Source: an uncultured virus (IMG/VR IMGVR_UViG_2627854101_000001) (lineage: Duplodnaviria > Heunggongvirae > Uroviricota > Caudoviricetes). From it: DNA of 64,000 bases. The stretch is taken from the IMG/VR virus record IMGVR_UViG_2627854101_000001, positions 1 through 64,000 of that record; one strand, written 5' to 3'. Below, piece by piece: positions 14,234-63,706 of this stretch (its first letter is position 1; each line of letters opens with the position of its first letter). The notes beneath the pieces are model-generated. The model had not been told where the DNA came from. It saw only the letters and a list, made by a program, of their open reading frames with translations, and made no database searches. Both the position numbers and the translations under genes were made by a program.

Positions 14234-14318
14234 AGACTTGACTGCGTAATTTTTAGAGTGAAAATAAAATATAAACAAAATAAAATGCATATTTTAAACA
14301 GAATGGGGATGTAAAGAG

Positions 14319-14516
14319 ATGAATGAGAGTGCAGTAAAGCAATATCTTGAAACTGTTTTTAAATTGGATGGGCTAGAATTTATGTTTAATGATGGTGAAA
14401 AGATTGTTTTCTCTAGTCCTATGGGTGATGTTGTTGTCTGTATCGAGACAAGAAAAGTTTATGATCATGAGAAAAATTTAATAGGTGAAATCAGTTCAAT
14501 ATACAATATGGGTTAA
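14319..14516 (+). CDS. Hypothetical protein
   Basis: 65 aa ORF in accessory array. Confidence 0.7.
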   Translation: MNESAVKQYLETVFKLDGLEFMFNDGEKIVFSSPMGDVVVCIETRKVYDHEKNLIGEISSIYNMG

Positions 14517-14525
14517 AAAGGTGAC

Positions 14526-14762
14526 GTGAAGATGACAAAGAACAACTTAGTCTGGCAGTTGCCTGTCATCCAAAGCAATCTAACAGATCATGATTGGGTT
14601 CATCCAAAGGCGAAATATCACGCCTTTATTGATAACAAGTCTATTTGTGGAAAGTATGGTCAAAATACAGACTTTTTCGAAACTGGAATAGAAGAGTCTG
14701 AGGTGTTGGCAAATAAGGATTGGGCTTGCAAAGTATGTTTGAAGAAGTTGGGGATTTCTTGA
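14526..14762 (+). CDS. Hypothetical protein, possible Zn-binding
   Basis: H...SICG...CKVC. Confidence 0.7.
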   Translation: MKMTKNNLVWQLPVIQSNLTDHDWVHPKAKYHAFIDNKSICGKYGQNTDFFETGIEESEVLANKDWACKVCLKKLGIS

Positions 14763-14841
14763 ATTAAACAGAATGGAGGAAAACTAGAATATTAATTTAT
14801 GTCTTATTCCGATTAAAAACACCAATAAGAAAGGAAGATTA

Positions 14842-15042
14842 TTGATGGGGGAAAATAAACTATTTAGTGAAGAAACCGTAAATGTTGATAATTGCCAATG
14901 CGTATATTGTGGTCATGTATTTAGTGGTCGTGACGCTTGCAACAATAATATGGACGTACTTATTGTTACGTGTCCAGAATGCGAAAAGGATATGGATGTT
15001 TATCTATCTATAGAGTATATATGTAGACCGTTAGAGGATTAA
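14842..15042 (+). CDS. Small zinc-finger protein
   Basis: CVYCG...CPECE. Confidence 0.7.
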   Translation: MMGENKLFSEETVNVDNCQCVYCGHVFSGRDACNNNMDVLIVTCPECEKDMDVYLSIEYICRPLED

Positions 15043-15111
15043 AAACATAGTTCGTATATCGAGTTGGGTAAAATATTCATCTTATTTTAAACAGAATGGA
15101 GAGAAAAAGAT

Positions 15112-15399
15112 ATGGAGATTAAGGTAGGACAATATTATGCTCTTGAAAGAACAGAAGAAGGAAGTACAGAAGTAAATATAATTAAAATCTTACCAAACAA
15201 ACCTAATATGCTAGATGTCTTTGTATGTACGGAAACATTGTATATCAAAGATGGTCAAGTGTGTGATCTGTATACGAATGATTGGGTTAAAGATTCAATT
15301 CAGCGTGAAGCAACAGAAAGCGAAATTCAACTGTTTAAAAACACAAGAGAAAAAATGAGCGATCTAAAATCATATGGTGAACTTGTGAGTTCTGAATAA
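15112..15399 (+). CDS. Hypothetical protein
   Basis: 95 aa with ggagag RBS. Confidence 0.75.
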   Translation: MEIKVGQYYALERTEEGSTEVNIIKILPNKPNMLDVFVCTETLYIKDGQVCDLYTNDWVKDSIQREATESEIQLFKNTREKMSDLKSYGELVSSE

Positions 15400-15430
15400 A
15401 ACAACAATTTTAAAGAGAGGAGAATAAAGC

Positions 15431-15757
15431 ATGAAAAAATCAAAATTAAATGAAAACATCCTTCAATTCTTACTGGACAACGGCTTTAAACTAAAGGAAT
15501 ATGAAGATCAGGGGTTGACATTTTATTCTAAGGAAATAAAAGACGGTCAAACATTGAAAAGATTAATTGAACATCATTATGAACTCGAGGAAGGTGAAGA
15601 GATTAATACAAAAGGAGTAAGCTTTACTGTAGAGATACAGACAAATGGGGAGTCACCTCAATGGGTCTTTACTGGTAGGCATGAAATGTTTGGCATTCTT
15701 GAAGGTCAACAGCAGTTTTTTGAATATGTAAAAGAAATTAAGCCATTAATTAGTTAG
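15431..15757 (+). CDS. Hypothetical protein
   Basis: 108 aa with gaggag RBS. Confidence 0.75.
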   Translation: MKKSKLNENILQFLLDNGFKLKEYEDQGLTFYSKEIKDGQTLKRLIEHHYELEEGEEINTKGVSFTVEIQTNGESPQWVFTGRHEMFGILEGQQQFFEYVKEIKPLIS

Positions 15758-15792
15758 GCAACTGAGTAGCTAAAGAGAGGGGAAATATAGCC

Positions 15793-15957
15793 ATGAAGGT
15801 TAAACAATTAATTGATTCATTGCAAACCATGTTGGAGAAAGGTGAAATAAAGGAGGAAACACAGATCCTACTCAATACATATGACGACTGTATGTACGAA
15901 GTAGCATGTGTTGAGTCACTGGGAGAGTTTGTACAAATAGAAGCTGAGATTAAATAA
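15793..15957 (+). CDS. Small hypothetical protein (54 aa, not in the ORF track)
   Basis: MKVKQLIDSLQTMLEKG... read manually; gagggg RBS. Confidence 0.7.
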   Translation: MKVKQLIDSLQTMLEKGEIKEETQILLNTYDDCMYEVACVESLGEFVQIEAEIK

Positions 15958-15973
15958 AACATGTGCAAGAAAG

Positions 15974-61394: not shown

Positions 61395-61526
61395 CAGTAG
61401 CCTTATTGTACTGTAGGGGAGGAAACTCTCCTACTTTTTAAAAAATATTTAGAATAAAAATAAAATAGTTATTGATTAATTGATGAGATGCGAGTATATT
61501 AGAAGAATAGGAAGCGAGGTGATGCA

Positions 61527-61712
61527 TTGGAGTGTGTTAAATGCAAGGAGCACATAGGCGAGATCGTTTATTACATAAGAATAACTGATAACAAAGAATA
61601 CAGGGAATTCCCGGTACATAAAGAATGCGGAGAAGCAATCAAGAAAGAATGCATTGAAAATTGTAAAGACATGAAATTAGAAAAGACATTGGGTTACTTG
61701 CAACTATTTTGA
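61527..61712 (+). CDS. Small Zn-binding protein
   Basis: CVKC...H..C; after the SPBRE promoter at 61455. Confidence 0.7.
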   Translation: MECVKCKEHIGEIVYYIRITDNKEYREFPVHKECGEAIKKECIENCKDMKLEKTLGYLQLF

Positions 61713-61757
61713 GAGTAAAAATAAAATATTCCTTTTATCGAGAATGGAGGTGATGAA

Positions 61758-61928
61758 ATTTCATATTTAGTACTGGGTCTGATCTTATTCGGTTCAATAT
61801 TCTTAGGCAATGGAATGGCATGTTTGGTTGAGAATAAGAACTTTAAAGAAGGAAAACCATTTTATCTTACGGTTTTCTTAATTGGAGGATGTTCACTCAT
61901 TCTTGGAGTTATTCTTACAGTGATATGA
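61758..61928 (+). CDS. Small two-transmembrane protein with putative ATT start (56 aa)
   Basis: ggaggtg RBS, then ATT-TCA-TAT..., open to TGA 61928. Confidence 0.45.
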   Translation: MSYLVLGLILFGSIFLGNGMACLVENKNFKEGKPFYLTVFLIGGCSLILGVILTVI

Positions 61929-62045
61929 ACAATGTGAAGGGAAATAGTGCAAGGAAATATAAATGATTTCCTGGGAAAGCGCAGTATACGACAAATTGGA
62001 ACAAATGATGTCTTTAGGTGATAAACAAAAAAGGAGCATAGAGCC

Positions 62046-62519
62046 ATGGAAACATTAGATGCACCAATTTACGAGATTAAGCAAGAAAGCGATTGGTATA
62101 AAACTGAGAAGAAACGAAGAGAAGGCATTAACAAGTTCTTTGATGAATTCGAAGCAGCCTACGGAATTAAGGATGGTTTTTCGTTTTATAATTCTGAGTA
62201 TTTCGGGGTTCGAGCAGGAACAGAAGCATATGTCTTCTTTAAAGATGAAGTGATGAAAAACCCTACAAAAGATGGCTTCTATGCATTTAAAAAACGTTCT
62301 AAGTATTTTTCCGAGATTGGGTCTATGCTAGAGAAAGCAGAAGAGGTAAATCCTTTCAAAGGTCATGAGGTACTTGGGAGAAATAATATAGCTGCATACC
62401 AATGGATAGGCGATAGATGGTTTTTTAGCGTATGGGATGAAAAACGTGTAGAAGGTGAAGAAGCTACACCTATTGACTATAAAGAGTATCTGAAAATTGT
62501 AATGGAGCATTTAGATTAA
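62046..62519 (+). CDS. Hypothetical protein
   Basis: 157 aa, aaggag RBS. Confidence 0.8.
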   Translation: METLDAPIYEIKQESDWYKTEKKRREGINKFFDEFEAAYGIKDGFSFYNSEYFGVRAGTEAYVFFKDEVMKNPTKDGFYAFKKRSKYFSEIGSMLEKAEEVNPFKGHEVLGRNNIAAYQWIGDRWFFSVWDEKRVEGEEATPIDYKEYLKIVMEHLD

Positions 62520-62557
62520 AATTCAATTTTTAAAGAGACTTTTAAGGAGGTGAAAAA

Positions 62558-62965
62558 GTGGGACGGCATAAAGCAACATTTGAGGGTAAGGTAATTAAGA
62601 AAAGTTGGACATTAGACCTGTGTGATGCCCTTGTCCCAATTGAGAAGCAATGTAGATACCAGCCATTTTTTGAAGGGATCATCGACTTAGATCCAATTGA
62701 AGTCGGAGGGAAAGTGTATATCCCAGGGTTTAACGAATACGTAGTCGTAACAGACAGGCAGCGCAACACAAAAAATGAATGGGCATATCAGACTGACAAG
62801 GTAATTAAAACAATTGAAGATAAAGAGAGCCTTGAAAAAGCGATTCAAACACAAGAAAAAATACAGAAATGGAATCAACAAGTTAAAGAAAAATATGAAC
62901 GCTTTAAAGAGGAAGGAGAAAAACGTAAAGCTTCTTGGTGGAAGAGGCTAATTAAAAAAGACTAA
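62558..62965 (+). CDS. Hypothetical protein
   Basis: 135 aa, aaggaggtg RBS. Confidence 0.8.
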   Translation: MGRHKATFEGKVIKKSWTLDLCDALVPIEKQCRYQPFFEGIIDLDPIEVGGKVYIPGFNEYVVVTDRQRNTKNEWAYQTDKVIKTIEDKESLEKAIQTQEKIQKWNQQVKEKYERFKEEGEKRKASWWKRLIKKD

Positions 62966-62979
62966 AGGAGAGATATTTA

Positions 62980-63327
62980 TTGAATAAGAATACAAAAGAT
63001 ATTTGGAACGGTTTCTTTATCGGATCAGGTTCTCTGATTGTAGTTGGGTTACTCATTTTTGTTGAAGCATTGACTATGTCACTAGTTGTCTATTATGGAT
63101 TGAATCACGTGTTAAACCCATTGCTTATTGATACATACAGTATTCAAAATGTTCATGTCACTTTACCTCATTCATTTGTTATTGGTGTTTTACTCAACGT
63201 ATTTGTCAAAGGTGTAAAACGGTCAGATCAGGAAAAAGATGAGAACATTTTCAAGAAAGCCGGTAAGTCTTTACTTCATTCAGCTTTCGCACTGATCGTT
63301 CTGTATGTGAGCACACTGTTTATCTAA
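62980..63327 (+). CDS. Membrane protein
   Basis: Three hydrophobic segments. Confidence 0.75.
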   Translation: MNKNTKDIWNGFFIGSGSLIVVGLLIFVEALTMSLVVYYGLNHVLNPLLIDTYSIQNVHVTLPHSFVIGVLLNVFVKGVKRSDQEKDENIFKKAGKSLLHSAFALIVLYVSTLFI

Positions 63328-63344
63328 CGAGGAGAAACAAATAC

Positions 63345-63662
63345 ATGGAGGGTGATGTTATGGAATTAACAAAGAAGATTACAACGGTTAGAGGTACATA
63401 TGAAATTAAATTATCCGTTAAAGAAGGGGAAGTTTTACGATGGCATATTTTAGAATGGGAGGTTAAGGATTTTATTACGAAAAATACATTAGCTGCAGGC
63501 AATCAAGTTCCGGGGTTAATCATATACACAGGTTTAAGAAAATGGAGTCTAATTGAACAAGTTAAAAAAATTATTGGAAAAGTAGAAGCAGATGAATTGC
63601 GACATAAGGAAAAGAACGAGGATATTGAAGAATTTAATGACTGGAACGGAGTTCTTGTTTAA
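63345..63662 (+). CDS. Hypothetical protein
   Basis: ORF; start may be ATG 63360. Confidence 0.75.
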   Translation: MEGDVMELTKKITTVRGTYEIKLSVKEGEVLRWHILEWEVKDFITKNTLAAGNQVPGLIIYTGLRKWSLIEQVKKIIGKVEADELRHKEKNEDIEEFNDWNGVLV

Positions 63663-63706
63663 TCGGTTAAAAGTTTTATTTTATCTAAACAGAGGGGGAA
63701 CTAAAT

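Follow-up and report, generated by a model that had tools for sequence, protein, structure and literature searches.

A dispersed 16-bp dyad with position-specific centres at module joints of SPbeta-like Bacillus phages

Results

The window analysed here covers positions 1 to 64,000 of a virus record that is 84,972 bases long (IMG/VR IMGVR_UViG_2627854101_000001; "contig" hereinafter refers to the whole record) and belongs, by gene content and Pfam matches, to an SPbeta-like Bacillus phage. It holds a yorE-yorS-type replication block (Pfam) that has about 84% identity with SPbeta, phi3T and 19 further Spbetavirus records, together with accessory gene arrays that find only patchy matches in SPbeta, phi3T and other Spbetavirus records. 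Dispersed over the window are copies of an inverted repeat, TAAAA-N6-TTTTA (hereinafter the dyad). Homology between related phages frequently ends at the outer edge of this element, and we regard it as well established that dyads are joints of module exchange.

The window contains 20 exact dyads, whereas 100 dinucleotide shuffles average 1.23 and never exceed 4; 18 of the dyads lie within 14281-63683, the range covered by an earlier note on this DNA, and the remaining two at 7372 and 10668. When a TTT(T/C)A arm is allowed on either strand, 28 distinct sites are obtained (20 exact and 8 variants), so the earlier count of 22 exact and about three one-mismatch copies was approximately right. All six copies cited there as examples (14281, 15397, 19487, 33665, 42170 and 59546) are exact dyads, and no two spacers are alike, as had been stated. 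The enrichment is confined to a spacing of 6, with 20 copies at k = 6 and 0-5 at each other k from 0 to 24. It is also concentrated outside genes: 20 of the 23 exact sites in the contig are intergenic (+5 nt), intergenic DNA making up 17.8% of bases, and shuffling of the intergenic segments alone yields 0.39 dyads on average and never more than 3. The excess over both backgrounds that the earlier note predicted is therefore present.

The same pattern extends to relatives. SPbeta carries 34 dyads, 29 of them intergenic, versus 0-4 copies at other spacings, and every one of the 13 natural genomes compared (the contig, SPbeta, phi3Ts, SPR, Goe11, Goe12, SPbetaL1-L4, L8, BUCT082 and BUCT083) has 23-40 dyads at N6 versus 0-5 at k = 3-5 and 7-9. 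A 4.5-Mb host genome with a relative contains 72 dyads against 40 copies of a reversed-arm control, and the listed dyads with family centres map to prophage contigs; the motif is phage-specific.

Dyads typically separate a stop codon from the following ribosome-binding site (RBS), often with AAGAGA ahead of the RBS, confirming the unit order of site, RBS, open reading frame (ORF) and stop described earlier. They also occur between convergent or divergent genes, and the arms are symmetric irrespective of gene direction. Each of the seven stop-codon overlaps previously named is borne out, the ORF ending at site position +2 (15397, 19487, 19714, 32986, 34090, 39143 and 62517), and four further dyads, rather than about five, begin 1-2 nt after a stop (32596, 33665, 35507 and 42170). 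The two proposed brackets of inverted genes are also present, made of exact dyads at 35507 and 35971 and of one-mismatch forms at 16513 and 17770. Of the core operons, at whose junctions the earlier note found no sites by eye, the aim/sro block has none between 23683 and 31268 and the replication block has only two, at 48276 (inside the helicase ORF) and 55447.

The 28 sites are as follows. "Relatives" are the 12 genomes other than the contig; flank classes and the four-gamete test concern the DNA on either side of a site; X1 and X6 are contigs of relatives from public sequencing runs, and L124 is the closest genome locus.

7372..7387, exact, TAAAA-CGTTAA-TTTTA: 3′ end of the tubulin-like gene, outside the range of the earlier note; 16-mer in 0/12 relatives
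10668..10683, exact: overlaps a TAAAAATAAAA motif; 23 nt ahead of the start at 10706
14281..14296, exact, centre TGCATA: 16-mer in 11/12 relatives; in 12 genomes, left flanks fall into 10 classes and right flanks into 7
15397..15412, exact, centre CAACAA: TAA is the stop of ORF 15112-15399; 16-mer in 8/12 relatives; many unrelated-flank combinations
16513..16528, variant (TTTCA arm): adjoins the inverted acyltransferase gene
18784..18799, variant (TTTCA arm), centre TCGTAC: 22 nt ahead of the start at 18821; centre with at most one arm mismatch in 10/12 relatives
19487..19502, exact: TAA is the stop of ORF 19067-19489
19714..19729, variant: TAA is the stop of ORF 19522-19716
23683..23698, exact: upstream of the aimR promoter region
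31268..31283, exact, centre TGTAAG: same centre in 12/12 relatives; L124 block ends at 31284
32596..32611, exact, centre GATGCA: 2 nt past a stop; 16-mer in 12/12 relatives; four-gamete positive
32986..33001, variant: TAA is the stop of ORF 32854-32988; replacement here in L124
33342..33357, variant (TGAAA arm)
33665..33680, exact, centre AGACTG: 1 nt past a stop; 16-mer in 11/12 relatives; four-gamete positive
34090..34105, variant: TAA is the stop of ORF 33772-34092; X6 and L124 homology restarts at 34090/34091
35212..35227, variant: X6 homology lost at 35229
35507..35522, exact, centre GATAGT: left bracket of inverted gene 35553-35867; 16-mer in 12/12 relatives
35971..35986, exact: right bracket of inverted gene 35553-35867; isolated homology island in X6
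37945..37960, exact: 36 nt before the Gad1-like gene; X1 joint ends at 37942; deleted in X6
39143..39158, variant: TAA serves as stop codon of ORF 38873-39145; 25 nt ahead of the Tad4-like gene; point of divergence for X6 and X1 at 39156
42170..42185, exact: 2 nt after the stop of a beta-helix gene
48276..48291, exact: inside the DnaB-like helicase ORF; SPbeta yorI has a one-base-different copy in the same place; probably not a functional joint
55447..55462, exact: 5′ end of the yorM-like (3D domain) gene
57919..57934, exact, centre GATCAA: TTTAGAATAAAAATAAAATA and an RBS come next; same centre in 12/12 relatives
59546..59561, exact, centre TTTGTC: 16-mer in 10/12 relatives; four-gamete positive
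61722..61737, exact, centre TATTCC: 16-mer in 11/12 relatives; four-gamete positive
62517..62532, exact: TAA is the stop of ORF 62046-62519; 16-mer in 12/12 relatives
63668..63683, exact, centre GTTTTA: 16-mer in 11/12 relatives; four-gamete positive

The strict part of each arm is 5 bp long. Weaker symmetric preferences (T-Y-W-R-A-A before the site, W-N-Y-A-R-A after it) extend the arms to 11 bp, giving a loose 28-bp 11-6-11 palindrome. Inverted arms around a strict N6 fit the geometry of a tyrosine-recombinase core site, which has a 6-8 bp overlap. No pair covariation is found across the flanks of 57 dyads, and the RNA folds of ten dyads with 10-nt flanks do not beat shuffles in any of the ten cases (z from -1.8 to +0.8, RNA parameters), so we rejected an RNA hairpin or an extended cruciform. 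A promoter or terminator cassette was likewise rejected: within 14000-33999 there are 90 promoter-like matches compared with 84.4 in shuffles, a few weak ones taking a dyad arm as the -10 element, and no terminator listed by the same scan falls at any dyad.

Whereas the arms are common to all dyads, the centres behave as addresses. The 442 dyad occurrences in the 13 genomes represent 79 distinct 16-mers, none of which occurs twice within one genome. Each of the 12 genomes other than SPbeta has 11 to 27 16-mers in common with it, and their circular order is unbroken in 12 of 12 comparisons; the orientation of the centre relative to SPbeta is kept in all shared dyads of a genome or in all but one. 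The dyad upstream of yorE (SPbeta 99498, L002; phi3Ts 89345, L013) keeps its map position and has a flipped centre (TGATAA vs TTATCA) in 4 of 12 genomes, the core alone being inverted within palindromic arms. Among 218 unique pairs of diverged orthologous dyads (flank identity 60-92%), the centre is unchanged in 171, compared with about 38% expected at 85% identity, and per-position identity is 90-95% in the centre, 94-99% in the arms and 69-96% in the flanks. When pairs were located by their flanks alone to lower alignment bias, the centre was unchanged in 55 of 71.

Breakpoints of homology were collected by all-against-all BLASTN of the 78 genome pairs. High-scoring segment pairs of at least 150 nt and at least 85% identity gave 6863 ends. 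At 2721 of these, alignment of the following 50 nt did not exceed the random level (sharp ends), and 1104 sharp ends were left after de-duplication on the inner 30-mer. A total of 128 of the 1104 stop 0-2 nt beyond the outer arm of a dyad, the whole site including its centre being homologous before the break. Restricting the count to the 654 intergenic ends, 99 fall in dyad edge windows that make up 2652 of 239,677 intergenic bases (1.1%). The control motif TAAAAATAAAA (238 copies) has 3 ends in the equivalent three positions and no spike, there is no peak for GGAGG (2100 copies), and reversed arms have zero ends. One-mismatch dyads contribute 20 further edge ends. The unrelated DNA at dyad-edge ends lies upstream in 65 cases and downstream in 35, with 28 ambiguous. 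Breakpoints of gene gain, loss and replacement, the first two named as a check in the earlier note, coincide with dyads both among the 13 genomes and in relatives aligned to the window.

The same 16-mer is found between unrelated genes in many combinations, with more than one flank context in 45 of the 59 dyad families present in at least two genomes. In a four-gamete test on unrelated 117-nt flanks, 11 of the 44 families with at least four occurrences show all four combinations and 23 show three. Exact islands of 16-45 nt that hold a whole dyad and have unrelated DNA on both sides number 149 distinct sequences. In 5 cases an arm variant is linked to its adjacent flank and in 1 to the opposite flank (a further 6 are ambiguous and 10 uninformative), and this small sample hints that the exchange point lies within the 16 bp. 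Taken together, the unique centres, colinear order, breakpoints at edges and four-gamete families argue that dyads are in-register joints for module exchange.

Joints can also be read in the window itself. Contigs from four public runs (four studies, no run containing more than 0.31 of the sampled words) were aligned to 28001-44000, where 6 of the 15 listed joints lie inside a dyad or at most 3 nt from its edge (34090, 34088, 35229, 35987, 37942 and 39156). Around the dyad at 35971, X6 shares only 35965-35987, that is, the dyad by itself. In L124, 4 of 12 block ends lie at dyads (31284, 32996, 32989 and 34091), the first of them closing a 9.6-kb block of 97.8% identity at the dyad at 31268. 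Joints 30990>43962, 34261>43966 and 42575>43940 end at or near TAAAAATAAAA, two of them with sides of only 21-24 nt, and were dropped as cross-matches.

The Gad1-like and Tad4-like genes each lie directly downstream of a dyad (37945 and 39143, respectively), and relatives diverge at both. X6 lacks 76 nt (within 37888-37965), including the dyad at 37945, with nothing substituted. L124 is a 133-kb contig filed under a Streptomyces isolate; its content looks like a Bacillus SPbeta-like phage, with a locus GC of 0.34, a YopP-like gene 99% identical to that of the window and 6 dyads in 21 kb.

SPbeta-like phages carry another repeated intergenic element, SPBRE, which was reportedly defined by Lazarevic et al. 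in 1999. SPBRE is the operator of MrpR in SPbeta, where chromatin affinity purification sequencing (ChAP-seq) identified ten promoters (Kohm et al. 2023, PMC10516654; also Abe et al. 2014). These ten promoter regions share a 15-bp motif, with a sequence of roughly ACAAAWAATATGTATA, between -35 and -10. SPBRE resembles the dyad in being repeated and intergenic in the same phage family and in being bound by a protein of recombinase fold; it differs in number, with 10 ChAP-seq peaks compared with 34 dyads in SPbeta, and only some of the promoter regions also hold a dyad. Identity of the two was rejected on the different sequence and on the 7 of 10 promoter regions in which no dyad with at most one mismatch occurs within 300 nt. 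To judge from the sequences, MrpR is not the reader of the dyad in SPbeta. We found no published description of the dyad in a search that did not extend to Lazarevic et al. 1999 or the supplements of Kohm 2023.

A second motif of the contig, (TTTAGAA)TAAAAATAAAA(TA), has 37 copies there (in the window at 8310, 10589, 23732, 25476, 30972, 43970, 57942, 59567, 61455 and others), often just upstream of a -35 box (aimR, sro operon) or an RBS. Its distribution is bimodal: five genomes with an MrpR at least 77% identical to that of the window have 26-37 copies and 1-4 SPBRE cores, and eight with an SPbeta-type MrpR have 7-14 copies and 11-14 SPBRE cores. We regard this motif as a candidate for the operator of the phi3T-type master repressor.

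The proteins of the window weighed, for or against, as readers of the dyad are as follows.

18499..18702, plus strand: YopB-like small helix-turn-helix (HTH) protein (Pfam HTH_26; 72-100% identity by tblastn in 13/13 genomes)
26229-27284, plus strand: YopP/SroD-like Xer-type tyrosine recombinase (Pfam Phage_integrase and SAM-like N domain), candidate enzyme
28734-29714, plus strand: MrpR/YopR-like master repressor with recombinase fold (Pfam MrpR_N_CB and MrpR_C_cat)
within the window: HU-like protein (YonN homologue; Pfam)

The earlier note likened the 5-6-5 arrangement to tyrosine-recombinase core sites, and an Xer-like recombinase with a full active site is encoded at 26229-27284. A profile of seven YopP homologues aligns to the structures of XerA/XerC-like proteins 4a8e and 5hxy, XerH 5jjv, IntI4 and XerD with the catalytic residues R, K, H-x-x-R, H and Y all in place. 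The profile is needed for this match, since the single sequence finds none in the PDB by phmmer. The protein stays below the cut-off of every NCBIfam Xer or integron-integrase model; an integron integrase was rejected at 27.6 bits on TIGR02249 versus a cut-off of 265, with better scores on the XerA, XerC and XerD models. Its closest named homologue (97%) is labelled Bacillus velezensis. Brady et al. 2021 describe YopP only as carrying an XerC-superfamily domain, and yopP is listed among conserved genes expressed in lysogens in a preprint (Kohm et al. 2021). YopP is an uncertain candidate for an enzyme that would act on dyads. No match to a distant YopP relative (P0007) was found among viral contigs, and a YopP-profile scan of the genome collection gave 25 loci with only 2 close relatives. 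The other 23 (at most 32% identity, many similarly AT-rich) have 0-3 dyads, favour no particular spacing and show no enrichment of any other 5-6-5 dyad.

Proteins common to all 13 genomes include the YopB-like HTH protein, a Holliday-junction resolvase (89-96% conserved in the other 12 genomes) and the HU-like protein. The YopB-like protein could be a dimeric reader of the 5-6-5 dyad. All 12 complete genomes encode a second tyrosine-recombinase-like protein, YomM (SPbeta 40301-41302, L001), in the late region, outside the window. Its conservation is 98-100% in 9 of them and 64-65% in the remaining 3, and reading by eye places a Lys where the second catalytic Arg is expected.

Discussion

As the mechanism behind the joints we favour, tentatively and short of calling it probable, conservative site-specific exchange between sites with matching 6-bp centres, ranked first because it alone explains common arms together with unique, colinear and conserved centres. 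We infer that a dimeric phage protein would bind the arms, that two co-resident genomes (a prophage with a superinfecting phage, say, or two phages that co-infect a cell) would synapse where their centres match, and that strands would be exchanged conservatively inside the 16 bp, as by an Xer/Cre-type tyrosine recombinase across a 6-8 bp overlap. Differing centres would bar recombination among the 20-40 dyads of one genome and leave in-register exchange only; with the dyad placed between a stop and the next RBS, each swapped module would retain its own translation signals. A more specific version, possible in our judgement though held with less confidence, is a natural form of recombinase-mediated cassette exchange, wherein a phage tyrosine recombinase would act on 20-40 dyads and genomes would swap modules, including anti-defence genes, with their order kept. 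The heterospecific overlap regions would then ensure that the dyads of one genome never recombine with one another.

Several observations weigh against reading the dyads as dedicated exchange sites. About 85% of the intergenic breakpoints lie away from dyads, and breakpoint counts were de-duplicated by sequence, not by evolutionary event, in 13 genomes that are related. Among 383 blocks sharply bounded on both sides, 5 carry a dyad at each end, with 5.3 expected; the lack of an excess points to single crossover points rather than two-ended cassettes, and paired-site cassettes were rejected. Four laboratory phi3T x SPbeta hybrids contain 17 parental switch intervals, 9 of which are short and without a dyad, so ordinary homologous recombination works without dyads; the other 8 are identical stretches of 1.4-18 kb with 1-4 dyads and are uninformative on site use. 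In the pairs located by flanks, the 6-nt flanks immediately adjoining the site show roughly the same conservation as the centre, which makes a 28-bp stretch the conserved unit in vertical descent, and conservation of the centre may be part of this wider constraint. Five strict bp per arm are short for a recombinase-binding element. Finally, the 13 genomes fall into two sro types between which YopP, YopQ and YopR are 29-39% identical. The YopP types (about 33% identical) co-vary with the MrpR type and its operator motif, and the arms and many 16-mers are common to both groups, which weakens YopP as reader of the dyad.

We rank second a passive linker, a serious if doubtful competitor in which a dimeric protein (a YopB-type HTH protein or the HU/IHF-like YonN homologue) would bind the arms for gene expression or DNA organisation, and general or Sak4-type annealing recombination would occasionally resolve at the dyads because they offer short stretches of identity at gene borders. 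Half-sites one helical turn apart in a 5-6-5 arrangement are typical of an HTH dimer, the flank preferences are symmetric without covariation, and such a protein has its candidates in the YopB-like HTH protein, found in 13/13 genomes, and the HU-like protein; the ordinary recombination in the laboratory hybrids and the majority of breakpoints lying elsewhere also agree with it. A reader of the arms alone, however, leaves unexplained why the centre is conserved at its map position amid unrelated flanks, and conserved intergenic islands of similar length (TAAAAATAAAA with its flanks, GGAGG) have no breakpoint spike. The 11 of 44 four-gamete families moreover imply repeated exchange within 16-20 bp, a length that is very short for annealing-based recombination. 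A break-initiated hotspot, at which a phage or host nuclease or nickase would recognise the arms and cut the dyad and repair would copy a module from a co-resident relative as in homing-type endonuclease marker exclusion, seems unlikely to us: it accommodates arms common to all dyads, and SPbeta-like genomes encode HNH endonucleases, a RecJ-like exonuclease, a Sak4-like annealase and a Holliday-junction resolvase, but resection or conversion tracts should scatter breakpoints where we observe a 3-nt spike at the outer edge, the unique conserved centres are left unexplained and the YoqL-type HNH is missing or divergent in many of the 13 genomes.

Two further readings are, in our view, very improbable. 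The earlier note had proposed integron-like cassettes, single genes excised as circles and inserted via neighbouring sites, a proposal prompted by the site-RBS-ORF-stop units, the seven dyads that overlap stops and the tyrosine recombinase encoded nearby. It does not hold up against the lack of an IntI on the TIGR02249 score, sites of 16 bp with 5-bp A/T arms that show neither an RNA fold beyond shuffles (10/10) nor flank covariation, as a result of which an attC site was rejected, a dyad order that is strictly colinear between phages, and the chance-level number of two-dyad blocks. The uniqueness of centres within a genome, which makes neighbours incompatible partners, likewise argues against cassette excision between neighbouring dyads. 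Its alternative of RNA processing fares no better. An RNA-level signal in polycistronic early transcripts (processing, ribosome standby or translational coupling) would agree with dyads lying between stop and RBS, often ahead of AAGAGA, but the RNA hairpins are no more stable than shuffles and show no pair covariation, the arms are symmetric whatever the gene direction, dyads also occupy convergent and divergent junctions, and the breakpoint spike and conserved centres would go unexplained.

How modules are shuffled precisely at gene borders has been an open question since the modular theory of phage evolution. Sites of recombination type also separate accessory genes in integrons (attC/attI), where the stop codon can lie in the site; the dyad system differs from an integron in lacking IntI and a folded attC and in showing no trace of cassettes being excised. 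In engineered cassette exchange with heterospecific lox or FRT sites, for which the enzyme is proven, only like-centred sites recombine and exchange is in register. Common arms and differing overlap regions are shared by those sites and the dyad, whose presumed need for matching centres is suggested by conservation.

Among known systems, PeSLs and pdif modules come nearest to the dyad. PeSL cassettes of T4-type phages, as described by Arbiol et al. 2010 (PMC2839356), consist of a sigma-70-like promoter and a terminator stem-loop and recombine by homology, giving mini-circles. On that description, PeSLs and dyads are alike as short repeated intergenic elements among small non-essential genes that accompany module shuffling between related phages; the dyad differs in having no promoter or terminator signal, in its length of 16 bp and in its unique centres, by which copies within a genome are not homologous partners. 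The pdif sites of Acinetobacter plasmids described by Mindlin et al. 2019 (PMC6449649) have the full 28 bp of an XerC/XerD site, resemble chromosomal dif and are used by host Xer proteins. They share with dyads many dispersed sites, a 6-bp centre, flanking accessory genes and a tie to the movement of modules between replicons, and the candidate enzyme of the dyad is Xer-like; in contrast, the dyad has 5 strict bp per arm and symmetric arms and forms paired-site modules at chance level.

In these phages the joints are explicit, each a defined 16-bp site that combines a common recognition part with a position-specific address, and the setting is genetically tractable (SPbeta and phi3T in Bacillus subtilis). 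Since the modules between joints include anti-defence genes (Gad1-like and Tad4-like), dyads may set the pace at which counter-defence is re-assorted. If a dedicated enzyme exists, it would provide a ready-made multi-site orthogonal recombination toolkit, and even as passive linkers dyads would be exact predicted crossover points for comparative genomics and the engineering of SPbeta-like phages.

Other features of the window

The remaining genes referred to in the text were assigned by Pfam.

2178-4949, minus strand: YonO-type RNA polymerase
23820-24971: AimR, accompanied by a 41-amino-acid AimP candidate
37996-38880: Gad1-like anti-defence gene
39183-39389: Tad4-like anti-defence gene
within the window: DndB/YopQ-like protein

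The tubulin/FtsZ-like gene (Pfam; 5872-7382, 370 amino acids) is preceded by an ORF of 132 amino acids, which has no family match.

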